64,000 nucleotides of DNA from a virus. The translations under genes were made by a program, and so were the position numbers. The notes under the pieces are model-generated. The model saw nothing but the letters and a program-made list of their open reading frames with translations. It did not search any database and had not been told where the DNA came from. The DNA is taken from the IMG/VR virus record IMGVR_UViG_3300028584_001241; one strand, written 5' to 3'. Every line of letters begins with the position of its first letter. Position 1 is the first letter of the stretch. This document shows positions 6,516 through 59,785 of the stretch, one piece after another.

Positions 6516-7094
6516 TTAATTTAAAATATTAATTATTTTACTATTTACAAACTTATATTCTTTATCAAGATAGCCATCGGCTAATTCTAGATCCAGTCCA
6601 TATGTTTTTGATTCTTCACTTCTCAATAAAATATCGTTGATATTTAATTGATGTTCAATCATATCAGCTATTTCTAAGAATTCTTTTTGATTATCAATCG
6701 TTTTTCTCAAACTAGACACTAATTTATTCGTTTTCTTTGCATTTATTTTAAACTTACGATTCGTTTTATAATATTTAAAAAGTTTAATTAACCATTTCAA
6801 AGAAAAGAATGCTCCAACCATTGTTAAAAAATACATTAATACCTTGCTTAAACTCTCAAAGTTATAATTGTTAATTTGTGGTGTCACTTCTTTGACAACG
6901 ACTTTAACAGGATCAGCCTTCACAACCGGCTCAGCAATAACTTTTTTGGGTAATGTTGTTGGTCTTTCAGTCTGCATTTCAATTGCTGAATTAGGTTGAT
7001 CAACTTGTTTACGACCTTCGTCTAGTGCATGGGGTGCTGAAGCAATTGCAACAACTACCATAATTGAAATGAACATTACAATAATAAGCAACAT
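6516..7094 (-). CDS. membrane protein, paralog array member 4 of 4
   Basis: Two TM segments; NNYNF motif shared across 6516-9446. Confidence 0.75.
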   Translation of the reverse strand: MLLIIVMFISIMVVVAIASAPHALDEGRKQVDQPNSAIEMQTERPTTLPKKVIAEPVVKADPVKVVVKEVTPQINNYNFESLSKVLMYFLTMVGAFFSLKWLIKLFKYYKTNRKFKINAKKTNKLVSSLRKTIDNQKEFLEIADMIEHQLNINDILLRSEESKTYGLDLELADGYLDKEYKFVNSKIINILN

Positions 7095-7095
7095 A

Positions 7096-8124
7096 TTATA
7101 CCTCCTTAAGATTGCTAATTAAATTGTTATTGATAAATTGACTGGTATCTTTCATTTTTTCGTTCACAGCCATCAGTTCTACAACATTATTGTTTTTGTT
7201 TAATCGCTCAATTAAAATATTATTAATAACAATTTGATCATTAATATGCTGGCTGATAGCGAGTTGGTTATCTTGATTACTGATAGATAAATTAAAACTA
7301 TCAATAAGTTGTTTACTTTTTTTAATTTCTCTTCTAAGTTTAAATGATTTACTAAAAGATGACAAACCTTTGAAAGAAACAAAAGCCGCGAAACAAGCCA
7401 ATAAAGAATAACCCAAGGTTGTTAACCCACTGTTCAATTTATCAAAATTATAGTTGTTCACCACTGATGGAACTGGTGTAGGCGGTTCTGCTTTAACTAT
7501 ATCTTGCTTAATAGAAATAGGCTGATTATTTTTATGAATTTTTTGTCTTAATTCTGCTATATTTTCTGGACTTATTGAGCGTTCATCTTTCTTTAATATT
7601 CCATTTTGTGAAATATAGACAGATGACTCAACACCCGTATTATAAAGGGATGAATAAACAACAAGGAGGAAAGAAGCAAAAAATATAAATCCTACCAATG
7701 TAGCGACTTTAAATTGTTTATCTTTTGTTATTTGTTTAGCTTCCATATTGGCTATGTAATAACTTTTCACATAATCAAATCCAGCAATTTCGTCGTCACT
7801 AAATGTTGATTCTGATTTAATCTTTGACTTCTTAGCTGTCTTTTTGTAAGTATCGAATAAACGTTCATACTGTTTATCATAGTGTTTACGCTGTTCATGC
7901 ATTTCATAGTCTGTAAGATATTCAAAATCCTCAGAGGTTACATCATCTTGATCACCTTCATAATGAAATGAAACTGAATCATCTGAAGGTGGATCTGAAC
8001 GTTCAAAGTCATAATCAAAATCGTGAGTGTCATGACTCGTTTTAAGCCCACTATCACCCTGTGAGCCGACATCACCCACCTTGTGGTTTTCTTCAATATA
8101 TTTATCAAATTCACTCATATTCAT
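7096..8124 (-). CDS. membrane protein, paralog array member 3 of 4, acidic N-terminal extension
   Basis: VNNYNFDKLNSG followed by TM and KKSK motif. Confidence 0.75.
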   Translation of the reverse strand: MNMSEFDKYIEENHKVGDVGSQGDSGLKTSHDTHDFDYDFERSDPPSDDSVSFHYEGDQDDVTSEDFEYLTDYEMHEQRKHYDKQYERLFDTYKKTAKKSKIKSESTFSDDEIAGFDYVKSYYIANMEAKQITKDKQFKVATLVGFIFFASFLLVVYSSLYNTGVESSVYISQNGILKKDERSISPENIAELRQKIHKNNQPISIKQDIVKAEPPTPVPSVVNNYNFDKLNSGLTTLGYSLLACFAAFVSFKGLSSFSKSFKLRREIKKSKQLIDSFNLSISNQDNQLAISQHINDQIVINNILIERLNKNNNVVELMAVNEKMKDTSQFINNNLISNLKEV

Positions 8125-8149
8125 TGTACACCTATTATTCTCATTGTTA

Positions 8150-8839
8150 TTAACTTAAATTATACACAAGGCTACGTTCTGCAAATGTAAGGCTAGCTTG
8201 TAATTTATCATTCACTACACTTAATTCTGGTATATGATAGCTATTTTTATTTTGGTCAATGACTGCATTGTTAAAACGTAACTGGTCTGTAATTATCTTG
8301 CTATAATCAAGATAGGTTGTTGAGTTATTAATATCAGTTTCAAAAGCTGTCAATATATGTTTACTTTTTTTGATTGCATTTTTAACCGATAGATTTTTAG
8401 CAACTTTACCAATACCTTTAAATGAACAGAAAAATACAAAAATAGCGAGTATAATACTGGCTAAATAAGTAATACCTGAATTCAAGTCTTCAAAATGATA
8501 ATGGTTTTCATTTTGTTCAATAATCGGTTGTGGAGCTTTAACGACAACAGGTTCAGGAGCTACTGGTTGAATAGGATCTTTTCTCATTTCTGGTATAGTC
8601 ACAGGTCTGAGTTTTAAAGATCCAGAAGCATTGCTGGACATCCCCTTATAGTCCTTTAACTCAGTCACCACTGGTTGCAATAGTTCATGTTTAACTTCAG
8701 CGACTTCTGGTGGCGTGATATCAGGTTCAGGTGATTTACTAAGGATTCCAAGAGCAATTGAAGTTGAAATAGTAAAGACCGACATAAGTACCATTAGATC
8801 GAGCAATGAAAAACCTGCTTGTTTAGTTTTTGAAATCAT
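8150..8839 (-). CDS. membrane protein with prepilin-like N-terminus, array member 2 of 4
   Basis: KQAG/FSLLDLMV resembles a type IV prepilin cleavage site; ENHYHFEDLNSG. Confidence 0.7.
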   Translation of the reverse strand: MISKTKQAGFSLLDLMVLMSVFTISTSIALGILSKSPEPDITPPEVAEVKHELLQPVVTELKDYKGMSSNASGSLKLRPVTIPEMRKDPIQPVAPEPVVVKAPQPIIEQNENHYHFEDLNSGITYLASIILAIFVFFCSFKGIGKVAKNLSVKNAIKKSKHILTAFETDINNSTTYLDYSKIITDQLRFNNAVIDQNKNSYHIPELSVVNDKLQASLTFAERSLVYNLS

Positions 8840-9446
8840 TTAATATTTTCCTTTCAATAAAAATGAGTTTATCTTTCATCATCTGGTTACTGACAATAAG
8901 AGGGCTAACTGATGGATTGTTTTTATTAATTTGAAGCAATAAATTATTAAAAGCCACTTGTTCAACGATTTTCTTATTATAATCAATAGAACGTTTAACA
9001 TCATCAACCACATTATCAAATTCAGCCAAAAGTTGATTACTTTTCTTTTTTGCTTTGGCTAAAACGAATGATGTTCTACCAAATCCAATAATTTTATAAA
9101 GAATAAAGAACATTAAGGCCGCACCACCTAAGCCAGCAAACGCCATCAATCCAGTATTCAATTCTTTAAAATGATAATGATTTTCAACGATCTCTTCTTT
9201 CATAACAACAGGAACATTCTCAGATTTTGGTTTAATTATTTCTAATGGTTTTTTATTAATAGCTACAATAGTTTTTTCATCAAACTCTTTACTAGTGTGG
9301 AGTTCTTTTTTATAGCATGAACTATCCACACACTTATAAGAAGCTTCTGGCTGAGATTCATGTTTATTTTGTACCATAGCTCCTGCTCCAATCATACAGC
9401 CGACTGTAATAGCAAGGATAATAAAAACTTCGAGAATACTGATCAT
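8823..9446 (-). CDS. membrane protein, array member 1 of 4
   Basis: Likely start MISILEVFII at 9446; ENHYHFKELNTG plus TM. Confidence 0.7.
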   Translation of the reverse strand: MISILEVFIILAITVGCMIGAGAMVQNKHESQPEASYKCVDSSCYKKELHTSKEFDEKTIVAINKKPLEIIKPKSENVPVVMKEEIVENHYHFKELNTGLMAFAGLGGAALMFFILYKIIGFGRTSFVLAKAKKKSNQLLAEFDNVVDDVKRSIDYNKKIVEQVAFNNLLLQINKNNPSVSPLIVSNQMMKDKLIFIERKILNDFKN

Positions 9447-9609
9447 TTTTTTTCTCCGAGATCCATCTGTCCCAGTTAAAAACAGATGAATGAAATAATA
9501 GCAGATTGTAATCACCTTTTCAATCCCTTATTGCCTTTTTTTAAAGATATTATCAATTTTTGTTGTAAATATTTTATTGAAATATTTTAATAATATGGTT
9601 AAAAAAGTG

Positions 9610-31064: not shown

Positions 31065-31913
31065 ATGATAGATAAAAAAGATGAATGGTTAAAAGAAGCA
31101 ACTTATAAATTAGCATTATTAACAGAGTTTGAGGGGCATTTTCTAGTTCCTGATGGAAAGACACTTAACGCATTTTTAAAACGACCTACCTTAATATTAA
31201 AAATGATGAATAAAGGATATCCAGATATATGTCAAGAAGCCTTGGACCAATATGAGAATTTTGAAAAAAATAAAAGTTCTATAACACTAGATAAAGATGA
31301 TCTGAAAGAATTAGAGCAATCTTATGAAAAAGGATTATCACCAAGTGAAGCTGCCATTAATATCATTAAGTTTTGTGACACACCAGCAGAAGCGGGTAGA
31401 TACATAGCAAGTTATAATCCAGATATGTTTTCTACATTATTCATAATAGGTATATTCATCGGTATATTAGGCACTGCTTTTTATTTGTATGGAGCGGTAA
31501 AGGAAAAGGTTGCTGTCAGAGATGCATCAGAACATATGTTAACTGTTTACAAGAATGCTGAAGAGTTTAATGAAAAACAGAATGACAATTTAAATAATGA
31601 AAAAGCCATTAAATCTGGGATAGTTCCAAAAGAAATGAAAGTTGAAGAGAATAAAATAACCAATGCATGGGAAGGTGCTGTTGTAATTGAAAGCACTCCA
31701 AGCTTTTTTAAATTAACTTATGCTCATGTGCCCACTCATGATAGCTGTGTAGAATTTTTAGAAAAACAAAAAAATACAGGATGGAATTCGGTTGTTGTAG
31801 GAACTCAAAAATTTGAAAATTACAGTGAGATAACTAAATTAGAACTTTTAAAAGCCTGTGATTTAGAAGATGATCATGTTGATATGATTTTCGAAAAAAA
31901 TAAAACGATGTAA
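31065..31913 (+). CDS. membrane protein with PilS-like type IVb pilin C-terminal domain
   Basis: TM helix then ITNAWEGAVVI, FKLTYAHVP..SC, ACD. Confidence 0.65.
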   Translation: MIDKKDEWLKEATYKLALLTEFEGHFLVPDGKTLNAFLKRPTLILKMMNKGYPDICQEALDQYENFEKNKSSITLDKDDLKELEQSYEKGLSPSEAAINIIKFCDTPAEAGRYIASYNPDMFSTLFIIGIFIGILGTAFYLYGAVKEKVAVRDASEHMLTVYKNAEEFNEKQNDNLNNEKAIKSGIVPKEMKVEENKITNAWEGAVVIESTPSFFKLTYAHVPTHDSCVEFLEKQKNTGWNSVVVGTQKFENYSEITKLELLKACDLEDDHVDMIFEKNKTM

Positions 31914-35467: not shown

Positions 35468-35752
35468 ATGGAACTTAATAAAGAAGAGACTATAAAAGCA
35501 TACAAATCATTAACGCCCGAGGCTCGTTGGGATAAAATGTATGAAGCTGCTGAAGGTTTCATTAATAAGGAAGGTAAACTTCCGCCTACTGATCATCAAG
35601 TGAATGGCGTTACACTGATTAATTGGATTCGCTCCCATTCGTCAACCAACCAGAAAAATGAAGAAAAACGCAATAAAGTAAAAAAGATATTAGCTGAATC
35701 AGGTGTCTTTTCGTGTCTCGTTAATACTTGTATAAGTTTTAGTTATGAATGA
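35468..35752 (+). CDS. small protein with helicase-associated (HA)-like domain
   Basis: WDKMYE...F...EGKLP...LINWIR; 3' end runs into the antisense of 35699. Confidence 0.55.
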   Translation: MELNKEETIKAYKSLTPEARWDKMYEAAEGFINKEGKLPPTDHQVNGVTLINWIRSHSSTNQKNEEKRNKVKKILAESGVFSCLVNTCISFSYE

Positions 35753-40227: not shown

Positions 40228-41016
40228 ATGAAAGAACAAGAAATCAAACACATTGAAGCTTTCAGTGATTTTTTTGGAAAGTCTATTAGACCTGAATACA
40301 CCACTTTAAGAAATGAACGTGGTGATTACCATGTCACGAACAATTCGCCTTTTGATAATAAAATACTTCGTTGTCATTTTAAAAAGTGTGCATTTCCTGT
40401 CACTATCGCAGAAACCATCTATAATCATGATTGTAGCTTTCATTTAACTAATATGAGTGTGAGCGATGTCGCCTACCTTTTTAGAGACAACGATTATAAT
40501 TATGATGTAGTTGAACAAATCATCAATGAGCTATTTAAATTCGGTCAAGTTTTTAGCTTCTATACTGAAATGTCACCTATTCAAAATATTAAGTTGGAAA
40601 ATAACTTCAATAAGAATGGCATTCAAAAGGCTGTATTTGTTCCTACAGTGACAAAGTTAGCACTTTCAACAGTATTAGCTGACAAAAATGCAAGTGGTAA
40701 GCCAACAAAGAAAACTGCCATCGTTCATTTAGCTTTTATGATATCGGATGACAACGAAATTCACCCTGTATTAAACTTAGCAATCCCCTATTCAGTCTCA
40801 AAATTTACTCGGTTTTCCATTCATCTTCATCCATCTAAAAGAGATGAACAAATTAAGCATATTCCTATCATTTTAAAAGAATTTGAAAATTTGCTGATTG
40901 GACACTTAGATTTTGTGCTGACAAAATTTTTAAAAATTAAGAAAAATGAATTATCTAAGATGACGCTAGAAGAAAAAAAGAATTATCTTCCGGTTATCGA
41001 GATGGCTAGAATTTAA
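40228..41016 (+). CDS. paralog array member 1 of 7
   Basis: NYNYD..INELF..G, NEIHP, LHPS; ends VIEMARI. Confidence 0.8.
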   Translation: MKEQEIKHIEAFSDFFGKSIRPEYTTLRNERGDYHVTNNSPFDNKILRCHFKKCAFPVTIAETIYNHDCSFHLTNMSVSDVAYLFRDNDYNYDVVEQIINELFKFGQVFSFYTEMSPIQNIKLENNFNKNGIQKAVFVPTVTKLALSTVLADKNASGKPTKKTAIVHLAFMISDDNEIHPVLNLAIPYSVSKFTRFSIHLHPSKRDEQIKHIPIILKEFENLLIGHLDFVLTKFLKIKKNELSKMTLEEKKNYLPVIEMARI

Positions 41017-41045
41017 ATTTAACGACATTAAAGAGGAGTCAAAAA

Positions 41046-41819
41046 ATGAATGATCAAAATTACAAAACAGCTTTCAATAAATTATTTAATGGATATACAA
41101 CCGAAAATGAATTTTGGAGAAGACCTGATGCAAACTGGTGCGAAATCACAGGCATACTGAATATGAGTGGAAGAAAGTTCAAAGATAGTTATATTAAAGC
41201 TTATTTTTATCATAACCCAGAGACGTACATTTACACTCATTCTGCGATCACGTTTGAAAAAATACCAAAAAGAATGCTAAAAGAAATTTTTAATAATCAA
41301 AATTACAATTATGACTTAGTTGACACAATAATTAATGAACTATATACAATAGGTGAATCATTTAGTTTTTATAAAGATATGTCACCTATTCAAAATATTA
41401 ATATAGAAAACACACTAAATCTTGACCAATTTGGACAATCAACACCAAAAAATGTCACAAAAATAATATTAGCTTCTTTTTTAAAAGATAAAAGAGCAGG
41501 TTCACAACCTATAAAAAGAATGGCTAGACAATCCATAAAATTCAAATTGGTTGATGATAATATATGTCCAATAATGGAATTAATCATTCCTTATTCGAAC
41601 ACTGATTACTTCCATTCAATGATTCATTTACACCCATCAATGAAAGATAAACAAATAAACAAAATAGAAGAATTGAAAGCTGATTTTACAGTACAACTAG
41701 AAGAACAACTTGAAATTGTGTTAAATAAAAAACTTAAAATTTCTAAAAATGATATAAAGAATATGACTTTGCAAGAAAAGCGAAATTATATACCAGTTCT
41801 AGAAATGCTGACTGTTTAA
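41046..41819 (+). CDS. paralog array member 2 of 7
   Basis: Same motifs; ends VLEMLTV. Confidence 0.8.
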   Translation: MNDQNYKTAFNKLFNGYTTENEFWRRPDANWCEITGILNMSGRKFKDSYIKAYFYHNPETYIYTHSAITFEKIPKRMLKEIFNNQNYNYDLVDTIINELYTIGESFSFYKDMSPIQNINIENTLNLDQFGQSTPKNVTKIILASFLKDKRAGSQPIKRMARQSIKFKLVDDNICPIMELIIPYSNTDYFHSMIHLHPSMKDKQINKIEELKADFTVQLEEQLEIVLNKKLKISKNDIKNMTLQEKRNYIPVLEMLTV

Positions 41820-41846
41820 TGATAGCTAATTGTAACGGAAATTAAA

Positions 41847-42623
41847 ATGAATGATAAAGAACCAAATTATGTAGAAGTATTTAATATTTTCTTTGGAAAA
41901 AAACCTTTTTCTACTGAAGGTCATATTGATAAAACAGAAACAAAAACCACTTACGGTTACGATATAATGAGCATCTTTGTATCTTGTAGATTTCATAAAG
42001 TCAATGTTAATATTATGTCAAAGCCTTATAGTTATACTTGTAATATTTCTTTTAAAAACTTATCTAAACAACCTGTTAAAGAATTGTTTGACGCTAAAAA
42101 CTATAATTACGACCTAATTGATGAAACTATCAATGAACTCTTTAAAATAGGGCAATCATATAATTTTTATAAAGGCATGACACCTATTAAAAATAATAGA
42201 TTAGAAGACTCTTTTATGAGAGGCGGATATCCTAGCGGAAACAGCTCTAAAAACTTGACAAAATTAACACTGTCAGGATTTTTAACAGATAAATATACAG
42301 ATGATAATCCTTTGAAAAAAATATCGAAACAACATGTAAATTTTTATTGGTCTGAAAATAATGAAATCTATCCAATCATTACATTGTTTTTTCCTTATTC
42401 TTCAACTGCAGATTTTATTTGTTTTATTAACTTGCATCCATCACAGCGAGAGTTACAAATAAAAAATTTAATTCAAATAAAGAAAGATTTTACTGCTGAA
42501 TTAGAAGAACAGCTTAATACTGTTTTAAAAAGAAAACTTAAATTTAAAAAAGAAGATTTATTAACATTGACAACACAAGAAAAATTAAATTATATTCCGG
42601 TTGTAGAGATGGCAAGAATATAG
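41847..42623 (+). CDS. paralog array member 3 of 7
   Basis: Same motifs; ends VVEMARI at a TAG stop. Confidence 0.8.
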   Translation: MNDKEPNYVEVFNIFFGKKPFSTEGHIDKTETKTTYGYDIMSIFVSCRFHKVNVNIMSKPYSYTCNISFKNLSKQPVKELFDAKNYNYDLIDETINELFKIGQSYNFYKGMTPIKNNRLEDSFMRGGYPSGNSSKNLTKLTLSGFLTDKYTDDNPLKKISKQHVNFYWSENNEIYPIITLFFPYSSTADFICFINLHPSQRELQIKNLIQIKKDFTAELEEQLNTVLKRKLKFKKEDLLTLTTQEKLNYIPVVEMARI

Positions 42624-42658
42624 AATAGTCAAAAATATAATATTAAAATACATAAAAG

Positions 42659-43465
42659 GTGAAATATATGAGTAGTAAAGCTGATAAATATTTAATGGTT
42701 TTTAATAACTTTTTAAAAGATAAAGTAATTGATACTAGGCTTGTGCAGAAACACAATGAATCACTTTCTCAAATTATTGGTATCTACAATGATCCAAACC
42801 AAACGTTATCTAACTACTATACAACTTTAACATTTTCTCCAAATGCTTCAAAAGTCAATAATATAGAATATACTGACATATGTGATATTAGGGTCACCAA
42901 TATGCCAGATAGATATTTCGATGAAATGATGGATTCTCAAAATTATAACCACCTATTGGTTGCTGATATTATTAAAGAAGTTTTTAATATTGGCAAACGG
43001 TTTGAATTCTATCAAGAGATATCACCAATCAAGAACATAAAAATCAGTGAAGCTTTTACTAATAACGGTGATGAACGTTATGTAAGTCTAAAAAATATAG
43101 CAAAGTTAAAACTATCAACATTTTTAAAAGAAAAAGGATCAAGCATTAAAACATTAAACAAATTCATCTATTACAATATTCAATTTCTTATAAATAACGA
43201 TAATGAAATTCATCCAATAATGTATTTATTTGTTCCATATTGTTCATCTTATAATTTCATGACAACTATAAATCTACATCATTCTCAAAAAGAAAATCAA
43301 TTAAAAAGGATCGAAGAATTAAAAAATGAAGTCACTATGAAATTTGAACAACACTTAGATGGCTTATTAAATAGAAGTCTTAAGATTAAAAAAGATGAAA
43401 TCGCTAACATGTCCTTAAACGATAAGCTAAGTTATATTCCTGTACTTGAAATGAACAAAATTTAG
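42659..43465 (+). CDS. paralog array member 4 of 7
   Basis: Same motifs; ends VLEMNKI at a TAG stop. Confidence 0.8.
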   Translation: MKYMSSKADKYLMVFNNFLKDKVIDTRLVQKHNESLSQIIGIYNDPNQTLSNYYTTLTFSPNASKVNNIEYTDICDIRVTNMPDRYFDEMMDSQNYNHLLVADIIKEVFNIGKRFEFYQEISPIKNIKISEAFTNNGDERYVSLKNIAKLKLSTFLKEKGSSIKTLNKFIYYNIQFLINNDNEIHPIMYLFVPYCSSYNFMTTINLHHSQKENQLKRIEELKNEVTMKFEQHLDGLLNRSLKIKKDEIANMSLNDKLSYIPVLEMNKI

Positions 43466-43519
43466 TTGATGAGAATTGAAAAAAATGATATAATAACACT
43501 CTTCAAAGAGGTCATTTAA

Positions 43520-44344
43520 ATGGAAAAAAATAACGAACAATCAATGCTTATTAACATTTTACAAGCAACATTTAAAGAAAAGTATTTTGACGAAATAACT
43601 GTATCTGAGGGCGATAGTTATTCTGGAACTGTTGTCAAATTAAATTTGAAAGATAGTGATGGTTTCATAAGTTGTAAATTTAGAGGGCGAGGGCATATTA
43701 ATTTTTCCATGAATTATGAATCTGAATGTGTCATTGGTTTTAAAAACATAGAAATACCTATGATCGCCACATTACTTAATGAGAATAACTACAATTATGA
43801 AATCGTTAAGCAATCAATCAATGAATTTTTTAAGCTGGGTGAGAAATGTAAATTATTTAAGTCATTGAAAAAAGTTAAAAGCTTAAAAATAGAAGATAAC
43901 TTATCAATGGGACATAGGTGGGATAACGGTGATTATGAGACTCTATTTTCATATACTCAAAATATTTCAAATATACAGTTTTCAAATTTCTACAAAACTG
44001 AGAATCATAAAAAAGCGATTAGACCTAAAAAATTGAAGGGTAAAAATATGACGTTGTATTATAAATTTACACTTAAAAATGGCAAACTACAGCCTTTTGC
44101 TCATATTGATTATCCAGTAGCTCCTAACGTTAGTATTCCATTTGTTTACAATATTCATGCTGATTTCATTGAAGAATCTAATGATAAATTTAAGAAATAC
44201 TACAATGAATTGGAAGAAAGACTTAATAAAAGAGTTAATCAAATTTTGAAAAAAGATTTAAATTTGACTGATAAAACTCTATCAGAACTGTCAATAGATG
44301 ATAAATTAAACTATTTGATAATTGCTGAAATGTCAGAAATATAA
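43520..44344 (+). CDS. paralog array member 5 of 7
   Basis: NYNYE..INEFF..G; ends IAEMSEI. Confidence 0.8.
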   Translation: MEKNNEQSMLINILQATFKEKYFDEITVSEGDSYSGTVVKLNLKDSDGFISCKFRGRGHINFSMNYESECVIGFKNIEIPMIATLLNENNYNYEIVKQSINEFFKLGEKCKLFKSLKKVKSLKIEDNLSMGHRWDNGDYETLFSYTQNISNIQFSNFYKTENHKKAIRPKKLKGKNMTLYYKFTLKNGKLQPFAHIDYPVAPNVSIPFVYNIHADFIEESNDKFKKYYNELEERLNKRVNQILKKDLNLTDKTLSELSIDDKLNYLIIAEMSEI

Positions 44345-44362
44345 TAGCATCATCTTAAACCT

Positions 44363-45220
44363 ATGGAGACAATAATGAATCAAGATCAAATCACTTGTTT
44401 AGAAGCCTACTTGAAAATATTCAATGGAACGCTTTTTGATCAACCATCCTTCTATGATGCAAGTGGACAGACTAGTATTGGTTCTATTATCGCCATAAAT
44501 AAAATCCAAAATGCTGACATATCAATACAAGATGAAAACATTAAACAATCAATCCAGATAGGTTTTGGAAAAAACAATAATTATATGTATAAAGATCATG
44601 ACTATGATTTCAATTGTTTATTCCAATTTACCAATATTAATAAAAAAATGGTCGCTTCTTTTTTCCAGAATATAAAATACAATTATGATGTTATTCATGA
44701 TGCAATCCATGCTTTTTATAAGATAGGTCATGATTATGGACTATTTGACTCAATGGACACAATAGCTGATTTAAGACTGCAAAATTTCTTTAAAGCTCCT
44801 TATAAAGCCAATGGAAAATCAAATAAGTTAACTTCTACTGGAATAAAAGTATCCGAGATAAACTTTACTGACTTCTTTAAAACAAAGAAGAACGCTCATA
44901 AGGGCAAGCTGAAAAGTAGAAGGCTTTCTGTCTATTATAAATTTATAGTGAAAGATGGTGAAATACATCCATTGGTTTTGGTATCAATTCCAGTATCTAT
45001 TAATCATACACAAAGCATTACATTAGACATTCATCCGTCTGCAAAAGAATTTAATGAAAAGAAGCTAATAGAAGGTTTGGAAAAACTTGATGAAACATTA
45101 AAAGAGCGAATTGATATGATCCTTCGTAAAGAATTAAAATTAAAAAATAAATTTTTAGAGACACTGACCTTTGAAGATAAATTGAATTATTTAAAAGTCG
45201 CTGAGATGGCAATGATTTAA
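44363..45220 (+). CDS. paralog array member 6 of 7
   Basis: GEIHP, DIHPS; ends VAEMAMI. Confidence 0.8.
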   Translation: METIMNQDQITCLEAYLKIFNGTLFDQPSFYDASGQTSIGSIIAINKIQNADISIQDENIKQSIQIGFGKNNNYMYKDHDYDFNCLFQFTNINKKMVASFFQNIKYNYDVIHDAIHAFYKIGHDYGLFDSMDTIADLRLQNFFKAPYKANGKSNKLTSTGIKVSEINFTDFFKTKKNAHKGKLKSRRLSVYYKFIVKDGEIHPLVLVSIPVSINHTQSITLDIHPSAKEFNEKKLIEGLEKLDETLKERIDMILRKELKLKNKFLETLTFEDKLNYLKVAEMAMI

Positions 45221-45236
45221 GCTAAGAGGTGGCCTA

Positions 45237-46031
45237 ATGTTAAATAGAGATATATTGTTATCAGCGTACAAAAAAATGTTTGATAACACACCATTTGAAA
45301 AGTATCTACATCCTAAAGACACGTATTATGAATACCGTATTGTAGGCATTGATGAAAGTGTTCAAAGAAATACCAGTTCGGTGGCATGTGTATTTACAAA
45401 AGCAAACCCAGATAAAATGATACCGAATATAAAGTATGAATACATATGCACAATGGCTTTTAATTATGTAACAAATGCAGTCATTGATGAATTCTTTCGA
45501 TCAAAAAATTATGACTATGAACTTGTTAATAGAGCGTTAAAAGAAGTGACTGATTTAGGTATTGAATATGGTTTTATTAAAGAGTTTACAATAGGGGACT
45601 TTTCAGTAGAAGAACAATTTAAAAGCACACTAATTAACAAAACAAGTTCGTTTAGACCAGCCGGTGTGATTACTTTTTCAAATGCTTTAGTTGAATTTGA
45701 TAATGATTTTGGGAAAATGATTTATAAAAGAACACTGAATGTCGAGGTTGTTTTCATCGTCAAGAATAATGAAATACATCCAGTATTGATGATAGCGTTT
45801 CCATTCACTGCTAAAAAGAAATATTACATGTATCTCGATATACATAAAGATCACAAACATAATCATGAGTATGAGTTGTTAAATATACAACAAAGTTGTA
45901 TTAAAAAGATGAACGAACACGTTGATATTTTATTAATGGAAAACTTTAAGATGAATAATTCAGATCTGAATAAAATGAATTTAGAGGCCAAGCTCGATTA
46001 TCTTAAAGTTCTTGAGATGGGAATGATTTAA
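45237..46031 (+). CDS. paralog array member 7 of 7
   Basis: NYDYE, NEIHP; ends VLEMGMI. Confidence 0.8.
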   Translation: MLNRDILLSAYKKMFDNTPFEKYLHPKDTYYEYRIVGIDESVQRNTSSVACVFTKANPDKMIPNIKYEYICTMAFNYVTNAVIDEFFRSKNYDYELVNRALKEVTDLGIEYGFIKEFTIGDFSVEEQFKSTLINKTSSFRPAGVITFSNALVEFDNDFGKMIYKRTLNVEVVFIVKNNEIHPVLMIAFPFTAKKKYYMYLDIHKDHKHNHEYELLNIQQSCIKKMNEHVDILLMENFKMNNSDLNKMNLEAKLDYLKVLEMGMI

Positions 46032-50303: not shown

Positions 50304-52655
50304 TTAAGTCGGTGAGCTTTTGTTTTTTCTTGGTTTTAATACAACTGAAAGATCAGGTCTTGTTGCTAGGAACTTTTCTCTCAATGTGATCAAATCAAGT
50401 TCTCTTTCTTCTTTGGACATTTTTTTAACACCATCCAAAAATTCAATAGCAAATGTTTTATCATCAGCTTTAATATTCAACCCACTCACCAAAGCATTCA
50501 GATCAGTTTTAACACCTTTTAAAGCATCCACGTTAATCTGGCTTACTGAATCACTCATCGCCTTCCAAAATTGATAATAAGGCAGTTTAACCATAAACAT
50601 ACCTGTACCTTCAACCACAAAGCCTTCCATGTGTCTTTTTGTCTTGAATGCACTCTCATTACTTAATGCATTGCAAAATTTCTCAAAATCTTCAAACGAT
50701 CTAAAGCTAACAAATTTCTTTTTAGCCTCAATCTTTTCAAAATTAGCAGCAAAGGCTTCCAAGTTTTCATATGTCAATTGTGAGAATACAACATCACGCT
50801 TCACAACAGATAATAAAACAATTGAAGATTCATCAGCTTTAATAATCTTTGAATCATTAACTGGATCAATGACTTCAAAAATGTAGTTGACATTGTGTTT
50901 ATTCGCAAACACTTTCATAAACTCTAGTTCACTGGTTTTTAGTTTACTGAATACCATTTTTCTGAAGGCTTCTGTTTCTGCTGTATCAATACCATTCTTT
51001 GATGTAAAGACCAAAGCGGTATGTTCAACATCATAACCAATCATTCCCAAACGCCCATCTTCTTGTTCAAAAACATTTAATGAACCCGTTGTTTTCGATT
51101 TAAGAGATTCTAATGTATTAGATGCAACTCCTTTTTCATTAAGCTCATAAAATTTATCAAAACCACGAGCAACAATATCTCCTGTTTTATTATTAACAAC
51201 AAGGCCACGAATCTTTACAGACGATTCTTCAAGTGGCTGACCCACAACATCATCTTTAAAATTAAAAGTAGACAAGTGAGGTTTTGAGATAGAAACAGTT
51301 TCTACCAACAACTTATTACTTCTAAGATCCTGAAGCAATGCAACACCTGTTTTATGACCATCTACTTTACGGTTTAAGAAATTAGCCACTGTACTTTCTG
51401 GTTCAGTAACGCCAAACATACCAGACTCTTTTTCAATCCTAAGTACTTCTTCTTTATTAAATACTTTATTCGTAATATAGATACCATTAAAACCTTCACG
51501 GCTGACTCTCAATACTGGCAAGCTACCACCATATTCTACATCAGCTTCCAAGGCAAAGCTTTTAGCATAACTATTAAAGTCTAATTTATGTTGGTTTCTA
51601 TGACCATGAACCTGATGCCATTCGTTATCTTTATTCTGTTCATTAAACTTACCATCGACATCATAGCTATATGGGCCATAGCCACGCATGTATTCATCAG
51701 ATGTTAAAAGACGTGGAAACTCAGGAACTGCAGTCAATCCAGCATGTGTAGTCATAATCTTTTTGCCATTGTATTGAACAAAACTAAACAAGTGCATTTT
51801 TCTATACAACTCTTTCATATCATCTTTTGTAAACCCAGCTTTTTCAAGTTGTGGCAAAGTATTCTTCATAAACTCATCAGGTGGTGTGTAGATATCATGG
51901 CTATAGTTATACATATGTTTCTCATGATTACCCGCAAGGATCAAGACATTTGGATATTCCATATATTTTCTTACAAAGTGAAGGCACTTATCATTTTCAA
52001 TACCACGATCAAGATAATCACCAACAAAAATGTAGAATTCATCTTTTTTGAAACCACCTTCTAGTTCAAAGTATCTTTTCAATGGATAGAAAGATCCTTG
52101 AAGATCACCAATATAATGTATCTTCTTGTAAGCACTCAAATCAACTATCAAATCTTCCGGTGAAGCTTTTACAAACTTAATAGCCTCTTCTGGAGTAATG
52201 ATTTTCGTTCTATCATCAAATGAAGCATTGGTGAATAGTACATAGTTTCTATCAATAGCCTCTTTTGGCAATCTTTTATAAGGTTCACGTTGTTCATTAC
52301 GAGCGTAATAGAATTCTACTGGTTGCAATGGAAATTGAACCACACGATAATCATAATCAAACTTAGTCAAAAGTTCCATGTAGGAATCAATCGCTTTTTG
52401 ATCTTGGTTAAGGTTATCAATAAAGAGAACCCCACCCATTTGAAGTCTCAATTCAAGAGCTTCCATAAATTTACCGAAGACTAAATCCTCTCTGTTGTTA
52501 GAGAGTACAAGACGGCCATCCATATCAGTAGCCGAACCAGCATAAATATGTCTGATAGCATCAAGTGATAAGCTGTGGGCATCTAAACCATGCTCTCTAA
52601 TAAAAGTAGACTTACCTGTTCCCGGCATGGCTGATAAGAAGTAAACAATTCTCAT
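50304..52655 (-). CDS. polynucleotide kinase - metallophosphoesterase - RNA ligase-like fusion
   Basis: AMPGTGKST P-loop; GDLQG, GDYLDRG, GNHE, HGH; ARGFDKF, EQEDG, EGFVV ligase motifs. Confidence 0.88.
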   Translation of the reverse strand: MRIVYFLSAMPGTGKSTFIREHGLDAHSLSLDAIRHIYAGSATDMDGRLVLSNNREDLVFGKFMEALELRLQMGGVLFIDNLNQDQKAIDSYMELLTKFDYDYRVVQFPLQPVEFYYARNEQREPYKRLPKEAIDRNYVLFTNASFDDRTKIITPEEAIKFVKASPEDLIVDLSAYKKIHYIGDLQGSFYPLKRYFELEGGFKKDEFYIFVGDYLDRGIENDKCLHFVRKYMEYPNVLILAGNHEKHMYNYSHDIYTPPDEFMKNTLPQLEKAGFTKDDMKELYRKMHLFSFVQYNGKKIMTTHAGLTAVPEFPRLLTSDEYMRGYGPYSYDVDGKFNEQNKDNEWHQVHGHRNQHKLDFNSYAKSFALEADVEYGGSLPVLRVSREGFNGIYITNKVFNKEEVLRIEKESGMFGVTEPESTVANFLNRKVDGHKTGVALLQDLRSNKLLVETVSISKPHLSTFNFKDDVVGQPLEESSVKIRGLVVNNKTGDIVARGFDKFYELNEKGVASNTLESLKSKTTGSLNVFEQEDGRLGMIGYDVEHTALVFTSKNGIDTAETEAFRKMVFSKLKTSELEFMKVFANKHNVNYIFEVIDPVNDSKIIKADESSIVLLSVVKRDVVFSQLTYENLEAFAANFEKIEAKKKFVSFRSFEDFEKFCNALSNESAFKTKRHMEGFVVEGTGMFMVKLPYYQFWKAMSDSVSQINVDALKGVKTDLNALVSGLNIKADDKTFAIEFLDGVKKMSKEERELDLITLREKFLATRPDLSVVLKPRKNKSSPT

Positions 52656-52777: not shown

Positions 52778-53443
52778 ATGACTCAAGTCGCATTGAATGA
52801 TTATGTATCAGACTTACATCGAATGGAAGAAGCGTTTAAAGATACGTTTTCTGATAATATTGAGATGTTTGCCGCGAATATTCTTAACCAGAGAATGTTT
52901 ATCTATAATATTGAAAGAAAGATGATGCATAGACTCAATAGCACATCCAACCCAGACAGTCATATGTCTACATTATATAACTATCTAAATGATTACATCG
53001 AAAATAAGACTTCTCCGTACAGGAACCTTGTTTTATTCGAGATTGATCAATTGGTTAACACCAAAAATTGCATAGCAGAAGACGTTGAGAAATATTTTAT
53101 TTTAGAAAACTGTTCAATGACTGTTAACCTGTTCATGCATATGTATTACAAAGAAACAGGAATTGAAATCAACCCGTATGATTTAAAAGTGACAGAGGTT
53201 GAGGACATCTTAATAAGCTTGGGCCTGAATAGAAAAACATCCCTCAAATTTTGTGTAGCTGCGATTGCTGAATGTTTTGAAAGAGGTGATCAAGAACCTA
53301 TTAAAGCCATCGTAGGTGATAAGATTGATAAGTTTTACAAATTTTATGACATGAGTGTTGCTAATCATAACACCCATGACGGTGAAGGTTTTATGTTATT
53401 GCTATTTCTAGCAACCTTCACTTACATTTGTGAATCTTTTTAG
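52778..53443 (+). CDS. hypothetical protein
   Basis: Promoter TTGACT/TATAAT and AAGGAG SD. Confidence 0.7.
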   Translation: MTQVALNDYVSDLHRMEEAFKDTFSDNIEMFAANILNQRMFIYNIERKMMHRLNSTSNPDSHMSTLYNYLNDYIENKTSPYRNLVLFEIDQLVNTKNCIAEDVEKYFILENCSMTVNLFMHMYYKETGIEINPYDLKVTEVEDILISLGLNRKTSLKFCVAAIAECFERGDQEPIKAIVGDKIDKFYKFYDMSVANHNTHDGEGFMLLLFLATFTYICESF

Positions 53444-54050
53444 GGCACACTTGTTTAAATTCTGATGATATTGAATTATGCATTGGTTTATACTTTTCGT
53501 GAAGTTTAGACCAATCGTTTTTCATCAGCAGATAATCTTTAATGACTTGATCATATAATTCATTGCAACTTTCTGGATTAATTTTATTATTCTTTGCTAT
53601 CTGCATACCAAAATCTAAGATGCGAAGTGAATGCCATAAGGACTTATAAGACACACTTAAATTAAAATCCGCCTCAACCGTCAGTTTCTTTTTAGCTTTA
53701 ACATAGCTGTTAGAGCTTTTCTGAGAACAGCTTTCTCTTAGCTTTTCTTTATCTAAAGTAAATCCTTCAATCTCATGGCTAAGTGATGAGGCGAGGTATT
53801 TTTCTTTATGTGGAATATACAAACATTCTAAAACAGAAATTTCATGTTCCTGTAAACGAGCCAAGAATTCATCTTTACTGTAATTGCTGATTTCATATTT
53901 AATATTATTTTGTTCAAACTGTTCTTGAAAGTAAGGCTTATCACTGACAATGATAAAGTCTAAATCTTCTGGGGTTTTATTTTTATAGACGTTAGATCCA
54001 TAAGGGAATACAGCGATGGCGTTATATTTTTCTTTTAATTCGTTAATCAT
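53418..54050 (-). CDS. Pol-beta superfamily nucleotidyltransferase
   Basis: PYGSNVY...EDLDFII followed by a helical domain (KSLWHSLRIL). Confidence 0.75.
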   Translation of the reverse strand: MINELKEKYNAIAVFPYGSNVYKNKTPEDLDFIIVSDKPYFQEQFEQNNIKYEISNYSKDEFLARLQEHEISVLECLYIPHKEKYLASSLSHEIEGFTLDKEKLRESCSQKSSNSYVKAKKKLTVEADFNLSVSYKSLWHSLRILDFGMQIAKNNKINPESCNELYDQVIKDYLLMKNDWSKLHEKYKPMHNSISSEFKQVCPKKIHKCK

Positions 54051-54091
54051 GACAATCTCGTTTTCTTTTCAGTATACCACAAAAAATGAAT

Positions 54092-54120
54092 AAAAAAAAA
54101 GAGAGTCTTTCGACTCTCTT
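54092..54120 (-). terminator. intrinsic terminator of the GGA-rich RNA
   Basis: Minus strand GAGAGTC-GAAA-GACTCTC followed by a run of about 9 T. Confidence 0.85.
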
Positions 54121-54380
54121 ATCATTCCTTTGGTTTCTTACATCCATTAAAACAAATTAACGCTCCGTGTACATAAACTAGAACATATTCCATCTATCAT
54201 TCTAATTTTTCTTCCTTTTCCTTGTAACAGTCCTTTATAGAGTGAGTCCTTAACTTATCATCCTGATAATTGCTGCATCCTTAAATCACTATTCCTTTTT
54301 TTATTGTCGTCCATTACACTTGCCAGCCCACACTCAAAATCATTTCTTATGCAGTTATTCTTATTGTTTCCTTGCTGACA
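54092..54380 (-). ncRNA. CsrB/RsmZ-like GGA-repeat small RNA (candidate)
   Basis: 13 GGA motifs on the minus strand (12 ANGGA, 1 CAGGAUG), no ORF in the track, own promoter and terminator. Confidence 0.8.
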
Positions 54381-54385
54381 ATTAC

Positions 54386-54413
54386 ATACTAACAGGAAAT
54401 TTTTTACTGTCAA
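54386..54413 (-). promoter_or_regulatory. promoter of the GGA-rich RNA
   Basis: TTGACA-16-TAGTAT with TGn extended -10. Confidence 0.7.
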
Positions 54414-54664
54414 CTAAATTTTATAGCATTTTGCAAGATTTTTTCTTGACGCCATTAAAAAAACGCTATTTTTGATGCTTTTTACAAAAGCATATTTAAA
54501 TACTATACTTAATAAAAAGTTGTTTTATATAGTGTTTTTTATGTATGTTATTTATTTATGGTTAAACGATAAATAAATCAAGTTTTTTGCAATGTCTAAA
54601 TGCTCATTTAGGGTGTTTTGCAAGATGGCATATTATCATCATAGGCGTAAATCGCCACATCCTG

Positions 54665-54682
54665 CATAAGACAAAGCTTACA
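54665..54682. promoter_or_regulatory. GacA/UvrY-box-like palindrome
   Basis: Minus strand TGTAAG-CTTTGT-CTTATG, 10/12 match to TGTAAG-N6-CTTACA. Confidence 0.45.
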
Positions 54683-54917
54683 AAGAAATATTTTTAAAAA
54701 TCAAAAATCATGCCAAACTATTATAAAATAAAGAAAAAAGTCAAAAAACAAAGGTTTTTAAGCATTATAATATTACATATCAAGTGAATAATATTATTGG
54801 CGTCAATGACTATAACAAAAATTAGTAAGATTAAAGGTCAGTCATGCTTTCTTTTTTTATAAATTATGTTATTAAATTATGAGAGACACCATTAAAAAAT
54901 AATAGGAGACGCAAAAC

Positions 54918-55199
54918 ATGACTTTTTTAGAAAAAGTAAACGACTTATCAATAAAGCTTCTTGCAATAAAAGAAAAGTTTGATTCATTGGACAGAGATGC
55001 ACTATTGAAGTCAGATTTAGAAGAACTTTTGAAATTAGAGGAACTTTTAAATTTTTACATCAACACTGTTGTAGAATTAGTTATTGAAGAAAACGCTGAG
55101 TTCGTTAAAAACAATAAAGACCTCGTGAAAAACATTTTTATGAATGTGGACGAATTTGTTAAGAAAGTAAATGCAAATATGAATGCAGAATACTTCTGA
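54918..55199 (+). CDS. hypothetical protein
   Basis: AGGAG SD; helical 93 aa. Confidence 0.7.
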   Translation: MTFLEKVNDLSIKLLAIKEKFDSLDRDALLKSDLEELLKLEELLNFYINTVVELVIEENAEFVKNNKDLVKNIFMNVDEFVKKVNANMNAEYF

Positions 55200-57206: not shown

Positions 57207-57803
57207 ATGATTGAATACTCTTCACAATCCCTTTCCATTGGTCATTCTGCTTCTTTACTTGGTGTTTCTGTTTCAACTCTTCGTCGTTGGAATAAACTTG
57301 GTAAATTATCTTCTTTTCGCACTTTTGGTAATCATCGTCGCTTTCATCTCAATGATATACTCAACATCATCAACCCATCGCTTAATCAACTTCATGTGGC
57401 TTACGCTCGTGTTTCTTCTCACGACCAAAAGAAAGACCTTGAAACTCAATCTAAACGTCTAGAACTTATTATTGATCAATATGAGCATAAAATGCTCATA
57501 TCTGATCTTGGCAGTGGTTTAAATTATAACAAAAATGGATTAAAAAAGCTCATTAATCTTATCATTAATTCAAAAATACATACGCTATACTTAACTCATA
57601 AAGATAGATTATTACGATTTGGAAGTGAATTAATATTTTCTTTATGCAAAAAATTTGGCACAAAAGTTATTATTGTCGATGCAGTTCAATCCATTAGCTT
57701 TGAGCAAGAGCTTGCTCAAGATGTGATTGAGCTAATGACGGTCTTTTCGGCTAAACTTTATGGCAAACGATCTCATAAGAATAAAAAATCAATAACTTCT
57801 TGA
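57207..57803 (+). CDS. tnpA: IS607 TnpA serine recombinase
   Basis: MerR-like HTH (LGVSVSTLRRW), YARVSSHDQKKDL, DLGSGLN, HKDRLLRFG. Confidence 0.95.
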   Translation: MIEYSSQSLSIGHSASLLGVSVSTLRRWNKLGKLSSFRTFGNHRRFHLNDILNIINPSLNQLHVAYARVSSHDQKKDLETQSKRLELIIDQYEHKMLISDLGSGLNYNKNGLKKLINLIINSKIHTLYLTHKDRLLRFGSELIFSLCKKFGTKVIIVDAVQSISFEQELAQDVIELMTVFSAKLYGKRSHKNKKSITS

Positions 57804-57828
57804 CTTTTAATAGTTTTTTAGTTACTAT
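57800..57828 (+). promoter_or_regulatory. internal promoter for tnpB
   Basis: TTGACT-17-TACTAT overlapping the tnpA stop, upstream of ATG 57857. Confidence 0.6.
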
Positions 57829-57856
57829 TATGGCATTATTGAGTATTTATTTATCC

Positions 57857-59785
57857 ATGAAAAAGAAACCCAACATCAAAGAGTTATTTGGCCCTACATT
57901 AGATGATGATGTGGCAATGAATAACACCATCACTGTTCAGGCAAAGTTCGAACTTTGTCCTGAACAGGATGTGATCTTGAATAAAATCATGGAACATCTT
58001 ACTCATGCTAAATTTATGTATTTCAACTATCTTGTTTATTCAACTAAAATGAATAAATTCATGAAAGACCATGCTCTTTCTGTTACTAATACTGTCGAAG
58101 TTGAAGATAAAGAAACAGGTTTAAAGTCATTAAATAGTATTACAGCCCTTGAAACGTTTAAAGTTGTTTTTTGTCGTATCTATGGTCTATCATCACGTCA
58201 ATTTAATTCTATTGATTTTGTTATTAAAGGTCTTATTAAGGCTAATAAGACTTTAATGCAAGATAGATTAATCAACTTTAACGATCAACTTATTAAAAAA
58301 ATAGCCAAACAACAAAAAATCATGGGCGAGCTTCATCTTTTGTCCATAAGTGATGCTTTTAAAACTAAGAAAGAGAGCGTTCTTTCGTCTTACAAGAAAA
58401 AGAAAACGCTTTTAATCAAAATAAACGAAGATATTGAAAGAAAAAAATCGGCTATTGTTAGGTTAGATCATAAAATTAAAACCAACAAAATCTCTGTTTG
58501 CTTTGGTGATCGCAAAATATTGAATAGGCTTTCTTCTTTATTCAATGATAGCAATTATGATCATGGTAAATATAAACATCTTAGCAACGACGCTCGAAAA
58601 AGCTATCATGTTGCATACAGAAAGCTCTGGAATGATTCACGTTTTAATCAATTTTTCTTATTGGGTTCAAAAGATGAAAACAATGGAAATGCTTCTTGTG
58701 TGTTTTCAAAACAAAGTGAAAGCCTTTATTCTGTTAAGATTTCAATACCACAAGGTGTTAAAGATGAGCTATCTTTAACTCAAAAGTATTTAGTCATTAA
58801 CAACATTAACTTTAAACATAACGAAAAAGAAATCTTAAATAGTCTTGCTTTAAATGAGCAAAGAAAACAAAAAGAAAGTGAGTACACTCAAAAACGAAAA
58901 GACAAAGATCCATCGTTGTTCGATGATAAAAATAAGATGATAAGTAAAGCAAATTACTTAGAAGATGAAGGTATTGCTATTTCATTTAGATTTGTAAAAG
59001 ATACTTTTGCCGATCCTAAAAGAGTTTCTAACTCTTGGAGAATTCTAACGTCAATGGATGAAACCAAACATCAGAAAGCTATTGTATCAAAAGCAACAGG
59101 CGTTATTGCTATTGATACCAATGTTGACCATTTTGCTGTTTCTGAATTAAATAGTCAAAGAGAATTGAAGAAAGCTTTCAACGTTTATTTTGGTTTCACT
59201 GACAGTGAACAAAATTCCAATAAAACGCTTCGTAAAGAAGCGATATTGAAATCAGCCAAAGAGATTATTAAATATGCAATAGAAACTCAAAAACCAATTG
59301 TAATCGAACGTTTAGATTTCAAAGCTAAACGAGCGGTATTAAAAGAAGAAAATACTTTGTTTGGTGATACTGCCAAAAGAAGAAACCGTATACTTTCATC
59401 ATTTGCATACTCATTGATGATTGAGACGTTAAAAACGCTAGCGTATCGTAACGGCATAGCCGTATACGAAGTCAATCCAGCGTTTACGTCTCAAATAGGT
59501 TGGTTAAAGTATGCAAAAAAATATGGTATATCAAGACACATGGCAGCAGCGTATGTGATCGGAAGAAGAACGTATGCCATAGAAGAGTTGTTTGACCGAA
59601 ATGAGCAAGTTATTGTAAAGAGCAAAATAGGAACAATCCCGATACTAGTAGATAGAGGCGATTGTAAAACTTATTTTGAGTATTGCAGTAAAAACTTGCG
59701 AAATTTCCTAAAAAGACAGGTTCATGAAAACCGAGGAAAGCAAGATAGTACTCAGGTAAGTAGTGGATCTGTAATAACTATTTAG
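57857..59785 (+). CDS. tnpB: large TnpB-related RuvC protein
   Basis: IAIDTN (RuvC-I), IVIERLDF (RuvC-II), VNPAFTSQIG, SRHMAAAYVIGRR; likely start ATG 57857. Confidence 0.85.
   Translation: MKKKPNIKELFGPTLDDDVAMNNTITVQAKFELCPEQDVILNKIMEHLTHAKFMYFNYLVYSTKMNKFMKDHALSVTNTVEVEDKETGLKSLNSITALETFKVVFCRIYGLSSRQFNSIDFVIKGLIKANKTLMQDRLINFNDQLIKKIAKQQKIMGELHLLSISDAFKTKKESVLSSYKKKKTLLIKINEDIERKKSAIVRLDHKIKTNKISVCFGDRKILNRLSSLFNDSNYDHGKYKHLSNDARKSYHVAYRKLWNDSRFNQFFLLGSKDENNGNASCVFSKQSESLYSVKISIPQGVKDELSLTQKYLVINNINFKHNEKEILNSLALNEQRKQKESEYTQKRKDKDPSLFDDKNKMISKANYLEDEGIAISFRFVKDTFADPKRVSNSWRILTSMDETKHQKAIVSKATGVIAIDTNVDHFAVSELNSQRELKKAFNVYFGFTDSEQNSNKTLRKEAILKSAKEIIKYAIETQKPIVIERLDFKAKRAVLKEENTLFGDTAKRRNRILSSFAYSLMIETLKTLAYRNGIAVYEVNPAFTSQIGWLKYAKKYGISRHMAAAYVIGRRTYAIEELFDRNEQVIVKSKIGTIPILVDRGDCKTYFEYCSKNLRNFLKRQVHENRGKQDSTQVSSGSVITI

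Follow-up and report, generated by a model that had tools for sequence, protein, structure and literature searches.

A predicted Csr/Rsm-type sponge RNA gene on a ~1.9-Mb replicon that is probably a giant extrachromosomal element

The 64,000-nt stretch of DNA that we analysed (the window) carries on its minus strand a predicted small RNA gene of about 288 nt (54092-54379), with orthologues in 11 further loci. As judged by comparison of these sequences, it is a conserved, selected RNA gene bearing CsrA-type motifs, and the RNA is very probably a Csr/Rsm-type sponge. A CsrB/RsmZ-like sponge had been proposed from a sequence-only reading of this DNA, and the proposal gains support from the 11 orthologues, from covariation, from a GacA box upstream of the RNA in five orthologues and from avoidance of GGAG. 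Based on these observations, we suggest that the locus is a stand-alone sponge gene on a replicon of ~1.85-1.9 Mb, which is more likely a giant element than a chromosome. The fuller reading, in which a ~1.9-Mb gammaproteobacterial extrachromosomal element family carries a sponge RNA wired to host GacA via a conserved box, is given a probability of roughly 0.55, and we rate the combination of sponge RNA, extrachromosomal element and host CsrA as target at the same, slightly favourable level. The mechanism would be a known one, the RNA family a new one and the setting possibly new.

The RNA gene and its orthologues

The RNA gene lies in the interval 54051-54917, which is the longest one in the window without an ORF of at least 60 aa and had been described earlier as the biggest gene-free gap. 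The minus-strand elements noticed at the same time are also present, namely a sigma-70 promoter, TTGACA-16-TAGTAT with the TG of an extended -10 (54386-54413), and an intrinsic terminator (54092-54120) with a 9-bp stem, a GAAA loop and a U tract. The RNA start (54379) was placed ~7 nt past the -10 hexamer. Matches to the promoter pattern alone occur at chance level (21 found versus 18.9 expected), and the promoter call is supported by conservation rather than by the match itself: all 12 sequences keep TTGACA and TG-n-TAnnAT at a spacing of 16 nt, with a spacer that differs in sequence. All orthologues end in a terminator, with the stem kept and the loops differing. Thus, the locus has its own promoter and an intrinsic terminator, and no ORF keeps its length or frame across the orthologues, as expected of a stand-alone non-coding gene. 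A conserved small peptide was considered and rejected, since the longest ORFs vary in frame and length among the orthologues.

The orthologues were found using the downstream nucleotidyltransferase as anchor, and the anchor proteins of the 11 further loci are 60-91% identical. Conservation of the GGA motifs in related genomes, on which the earlier proposal depended, was observed: the 11 orthologues carry 10-22 GGA, each above its dinucleotide shuffles, with counts that are not independent of each other because the orthologues are mutually related. The covarying helices are kept as well. When the window RNA was compared with those of L001, L011 and L025, the identity was 91-94%, whereas the gene next to the RNA is 32-68% identical at its four-fold degenerate sites. 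Among these three, the GGA number varies by duplication of GGA modules; an extra CAGGACG hairpin is inserted in L001, and an internal duplication lifts the count to 21-22 GGA in L011 and L025. Such insertions and duplications are changes that a sponge RNA would tolerate.

The Rfam scan gave nothing at gathering score in the window or in 10 orthologous loci, and the CsrB, CsrC, RsmY, PrrB_RsmZ and RsmX models gave nothing in the window even when E was allowed to reach 10, so that the likeness to CsrB/CsrC/RsmY/PrrB_RsmZ is not borne out by a covariance-model match. DNA searches of phage and plasmid collections returned short chance matches only, and a scan of viral contigs for the promoter pattern returned the 181-kb IMG/VR relative G001 plus one unrelated site and nothing else.

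In several RNA runs, 7-13% of a 1.9-kb stretch is represented, and in two freshwater metatranscriptomes from different studies identical contigs cover only 54133-54350 and 54180-54360. These contigs confined to the RNA body are a weak hint of expression, because they show neither strand nor ends and the runs had been picked for containing the stretch; the lack of contigs over the remaining parts carries no information. Two further runs were not counted as support, one (X19) in which a single contig spans the promoter, the RNA and the enzyme gene (DNA or read-through), and one (X15) whose library type is a guess.

GGA motifs and RNA structure

The minus strand of the RNA gene contains 13 GGA, comprising 12 ANGGA and one CAGGAUG, and the plus strand of 54092-54380 contains none, which confirms the earlier counts. 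In the motif scan, the first G of each minus-strand GGA is at 54371, 54312, 54295, 54280, 54263, 54249, 54233, 54221, 54215, 54191, 54166, 54145 and 54128. The chance expectation of about two GGA given earlier agrees with the window average of ~1.8 per 270 nt, but the purine-rich composition of the RNA itself predicts ~7, and at least 13 were reached in 5 of 5000 dinucleotide shuffles. The 12 ANGGA were reached in none of 5000 dinucleotide shuffles (mean 2.8), and the RNA gene is the densest ANGGA cluster of the window, every other 270-nt stretch having at most 5.

Across the RNA family, A occupies position -2 in 139 of 178 motifs, and GG is followed by A in 178 of 221 cases. Only 5 of the 178 motifs continue with G, against 72 of the 111 GGA in the ribosome-binding regions of G001. 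Since G so rarely follows GGA in the RNAs, unlike in those regions, the motifs do not appear to be Shine-Dalgarno copies, and Shine-Dalgarno mimicry was rejected on this ground. An array of DNA iterons was likewise rejected, on account of the irregular spacing, the G-U covariation and the bounding promoter and terminator.

The perfect hairpin UUAUCA-GGA-UGAUAA that had been read from the sequence is real and present in the fold, and it holds the sole GGA (1 of 13) of the window copy that lies in a thermodynamically stable isolated hairpin. Most stems of the window copy are weak, and its overall fold is no more stable than shuffles (z -1.25). Comparison of the family revealed three structured parts, all on the minus strand. 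The 5' domain (54321-54380) forms three nested helices with 94% of cells paired, versus 37-42% in slid controls, and 7 of its 15 pairs changed on both sides; this test covered six sequences that are related to each other, whose own folds supplied the structure, and the L006 row was misregistered in the middle helix. The central CAGGANG hairpin (54255-54269), in which a C-G pair closes an AGGAN loop, is present in 9 of 9 tabulated sequences, and its four inner pairs stay standard throughout while changing between A-U and G-U and between U-A and U-G. The third part is a conserved helix with a GGA in the loop region (54175-54208), recovered as an RNAalifold consensus helix at columns 243-279. On the automatic alignment RNAalifold found just three helices, because the GGA hairpins shift register. 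When we averaged the predicted unpaired probability over the family, the Gs of GGA reached 0.65 versus 0.33 for other Gs, and stable local hairpin loops hold 40 of 178 GGAs versus 18 ± 4 in controls. That the GGAs are unpaired, many of them in hairpin loops, is thus predicted at the family level, and the window copy contributes its single stable hairpin.

Upstream control and known Csr/Rsm RNAs

The consensus of the GacA/UvrY box is TGTAAG-N6-CTTACA (PMC8523701, PMC4682653). In the window, a box-like palindrome, TGTAAG-N6-CTTATG, with 2 mismatches to this consensus lies on the minus strand at 54665-54682, 303 nt upstream of the RNA start. Five orthologues (L001, L011, L025, L028 and L053), which belong to two lineages ~67% identical in the anchor protein, have a perfect box at -301 to -304. 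The perfect box is unique in the 181-kb relative G001, and all perfect sites across 73 loci are the box upstream of this RNA; in six orthologues the box is absent. The box at -303 could serve the divergent gene at 54918 instead of the RNA. Between box and promoter there is a weak candidate IHF site with 1 mismatch (54513-54525, minus strand). A similar site is found at -146/-147 in four sequences, the window, L001, L011 and L025 (perfect in L025), and not in L028 or L053. In E. coli, csrB needs IHF (PMC4682653). Other motifs in this region are GCGTCA/TGACGC, found at about -72 from the RNA start (54452-54447, minus strand) and once more close to the divergent gene (54807-54800, minus strand), and TTGCAAAA, which recurs at -244, -213 and -57; both kinds are conserved in orthologues and are possible sites for a further regulator.

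It has been known that GacA/UvrY induces Csr/Rsm RNAs, which capture several CsrA dimers and thereby free mRNAs under CsrA repression, and that these RNAs function across gammaproteobacterial genera (PMC7366521). In line with this established biology, phosphorylated GacA/UvrY would bind the upstream box and activate the promoter, probably with bending by IHF, and the unpaired ANGGA sites would capture several CsrA/RsmA dimers, so that CsrA-repressed mRNAs would be freed. Since both CsrA and GacA are taken to be the host's, the element would add sponge capacity on the host's own signal; host translation would shift, and element mRNAs could be freed as well. ANGGA occurs within 22 nt of the start in about one quarter of the element ORFs versus 4% at control positions, which makes self-protection of element mRNAs plausible, and this is also the outcome expected from AT-rich Shine-Dalgarno sequences. 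The RNA may serve either of the purposes put forward earlier, rewiring of the host or protection of the element's own ribosome-binding sites.

When we compared the locus with E. coli CsrB/CsrC and with the Csr RNAs of Pseudoalteromonas and Marinomonas (PMC4682653, PMC11882849, PMC8523701), we found the same organization, a gene standing alone between its promoter and an intrinsic terminator. The number of GGA is also similar, with 13 here and 10-22 in the orthologues against 22 in CsrB, 14 in CsrC and 9-25 in Pseudoalteromonas. The CAGGANG hairpin is shared with CsrB-class RNAs, and so is, in its perfect form in five orthologues and with two mismatches in the window, the upstream 18-bp UvrY/GacA palindrome, possibly with an IHF site. 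Unlike CsrB and CsrC, the RNA matches no Rfam model and has AU-rich weak stems and a distinct covarying 5' domain, and its box at -303 is more distant than that of E. coli csrB at -183. The examples of the CsrB/CsrC class found in the literature are all chromosomal. By its sequence, the RNA has the features from which new Csr RNAs have been predicted (PMC11882849, PMC8523701). Several orthologues contain ANGGA hexaloop hairpins like those of Pseudomonas RsmX/RsmY/RsmZ (PMC4353343, PMC7366521), and the box here begins with TGTAAG, as do the activating sequences of rsmY and rsmZ. Sequence or Rfam similarity to these RNAs is lacking, and the RNA has about twice their length and motif number.

The locus also resembles the CsrA/RsmA proteins of plasmids and phages, such as RsmQ of pQBR103 (PMC9928087; survey in PMC7366521), in that a mobile element would act on the host Gac/Rsm network, but elements of the RsmQ type encode the protein, whereas the locus here encodes an antagonist RNA. 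No plasmid- or phage-encoded Csr/Rsm sponge RNA was found in titles and abstracts, for which literature coverage is incomplete. The Legionella RsmX/lpr0035 gene overlaps the junction of the element pLP45. If our reading is true, the gene would be the first one for a CsrA-antagonist RNA on a mobile element in the literature searched, and an antagonist RNA under host GacA would be the mirror image of the known elements that carry the CsrA protein. A giant element could in this way amplify the host Gac/Rsm switch. Hundreds of mRNAs are under CsrA/RsmA control, with roles in motility, biofilm, secretion and defence. The RNA with its box would further indicate the class of the host, namely a gammaproteobacterium that has Gac/Rsm. 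Should the replicon prove to be a chromosome, what is left is a Csr RNA family that is new and missed by Rfam.

The replicon and alternative explanations

Relatives of the whole window are Ga0308158_10000001 (L024, L070), Ga0247725_1000001 (L028) and Ga0310127_000002 (L058). Close homologues lie on single contigs of 1,843,594, 1,851,360, 1,858,324, 1,859,102 and 1,917,244 bp, and the contigs with more distant homologues reach 1.54 and 1.04 Mb. The family is orphan-rich, has ~30% GC and was repeatedly assembled as single contigs of 1.84-1.92 Mb, and the ~1.9-Mb replicon is widespread in food, groundwater and freshwater samples. The GTDB species genomes contain no close relative of it, and no paper on a matching replicon or on these samples was found in the literature searched. 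The DNA inspected, in which RNA repair genes occur, amounts to ~200 kb, or ~10% of the replicon, including G001. The latter encodes 25 tRNAs, 12 of them for Leu, together with three aminoacyl-tRNA synthetases, RtcB, Pnkp, Sir2, UvdE, Fpg and GAPDH, and about three quarters of its ORFs are without a Pfam match. No ribosomal protein, RNA polymerase, response regulator or CsrA was found in the 181 kb of G001, and no csrA is among the annotated neighbours of any orthologue. An rRNA operon and universal marker genes were not found in the ~200 kb. Neither the window nor G001 yielded a gene for terminase, capsid or portal, where the terminase model is one that also missed two large IMG/VR virus records. 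Orphan-rich DNA runs on past both 'provirus' ends.

The ClpA clade of the replicon is 63-99% identical inside and meets named bacteria at ~43%, TrxB is 69% identical to that of Acinetobacter, and the MFS-acyltransferase is 50-53% identical to those of Pseudomonas and other Gammaproteobacteria. The nearest named relatives of the housekeeping genes are Gammaproteobacteria, and these sequences point to that class. The replicon is not an ordinary phage. The earlier notion of a phage- or plasmid-like element is supported in part, by the abundance of orphans and by the lack of ribosomal proteins in the DNA inspected, but 'phage-encoded' falls short, because the close relatives assemble as single contigs of 1.84-1.92 Mb, and ~200 kb show no virion gene. 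Based on these observations, we suggest that the replicon is probably a giant extrachromosomal element, and that an unbinned, small, odd bacterial chromosome is somewhat unlikely. As only ~10% was inspected, genes for ribosomal proteins, CsrA and GacA may lie elsewhere on the replicon. The question of element versus chromosome for replicons of this size may outweigh the RNA in importance.

Here, we need to consider that the RNA gene could be an ordinary one of csrB/rsmY type on the chromosome of an uncultured gammaproteobacterium that has low GC, a small genome and its own CsrA and GacA. The size of 1.84-1.92 Mb, the synteny conserved across relatives, and genes such as those for GAPDH, TrxB, CoaD-CoaE, Fpg, OmpA and flagellin (the last in the relative L008) would suit a chromosome, as would the gammaproteobacterial neighbours of the housekeeping genes and a GacA box typical of chromosomal Csr genes. 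What makes this reading unlikely in our judgement is that 181 kb passed without a detected ribosomal protein, RNA polymerase or response regulator, that Pfam matches cover only about a quarter of the ORFs, and that the tRNAs form redundant arrays grouped by amino acid. The window moreover lacks, at the syntenic position, an IleRS-like gene that G001 has, and the replicon is not in GTDB although several near-complete single contigs exist. Alternatively, the sponge could be real and on an element but mainly control an element-encoded CsrA paralogue, like the plasmid protein RsmQ, in a self-contained module. Genes for csrA are often on plasmids and phages (PMC7366521, PMC9928087), the ~90% of the replicon outside the inspected DNA leaves room for one, and six orthologues keep the RNA without a GacA box. 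This arrangement is improbable given the missing csrA in G001 and beside the orthologues, and even next to a CsrA paralogue the RNA could still bind host CsrA, since Csr/Rsm RNAs are interchangeable (PMC7366521).

Two other explanations concern the RNA itself and leave its Csr role aside. The GGA repeats might merely resemble CsrA sites in a structured RNA that serves another protein or acts as a ribosome decoy. The missing Rfam match, the placement of many GGAs in weak stems and the few GGAs of the covarying 5' domain, which may have another role, would allow this; the ANGGA context, the CAGGANG hairpin and the GacA box together are those of the Csr class, GGAG avoidance speaks against a ribosome decoy, and we hold this explanation to be quite improbable. 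More improbable still is an RNA antitoxin of type III toxin-antitoxin kind, or an attenuated leader, for the downstream Pol-beta-like nucleotidyltransferase gene (53418-54050, minus strand; weak NTP_transf_2 match), which has a Pnkp-type kinase/phosphatase/RNA ligase gene nearby (50304-52655). Type III systems consist of a promoter, repeated RNA motifs, a terminator and an enzyme gene in this order, and the same order is found here; within the clade the RNA is always upstream of the nucleotidyltransferase gene, and the X19 contig covers both. A search of the RNA for the tandem direct repeats of type III antitoxins, however, found none, and PADLOC gave no convincing match. The RNA is absent beside homologues of the enzyme at 52-57% identity (L010, L030) and more distant ones, and L054 has no room for it. 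Just past the terminator, the nucleotidyltransferase gene has an extended -10 promoter of its own (54071-54079, minus strand), and TG-n-TAnnnT is found 18-27 nt before its ATG in 12 of 12 sequences. Because of this conserved promoter, the RNA looks like a separate gene and not like a leader.

Several further features of the replicon family were observed. The tRNA arrays grouped by amino acid are at 77614-79500 and 156104-158247 of G001 (L017, L021); they include the 12 tRNA-Leu, two of which have the anticodon AAG, and an Ala/Arg/Met array. The tRNA-Leu anticodon AAG is rare in bacteria. The IleRS-like class I tRNA synthetase gene lies at 113758-116283 of G001 (minus strand; L019:13758-16283) and is missing in the window near 35700, so that even close relatives differ by gain or loss of synthetases. 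In the distant relative L008, a short flagellin gene (1930-2754, 274 aa) lies beside a tRNA array; CsrA controls flagellin in many bacteria. An IS607-family insertion in the window (57207-59785, plus strand), absent at the same place in G001, encodes a serine-recombinase TnpA of 198 aa and a TnpB-like protein, which at 661 aa is unusually long, is divergent and falls below the NCBIfam TnpB cut-off. Several proteins encoded at 6516-9515 (minus strand) and 31065-31913 (plus strand) of the window have pilin-like N-termini, one with a PilS domain, and a type IV pilus or conjugation function is possible for them. Finally, a tandem run of ~7 paralogous orphan proteins of 257-285 aa, with no PHROG match, is encoded at 40228-46031 (plus strand) of the window.
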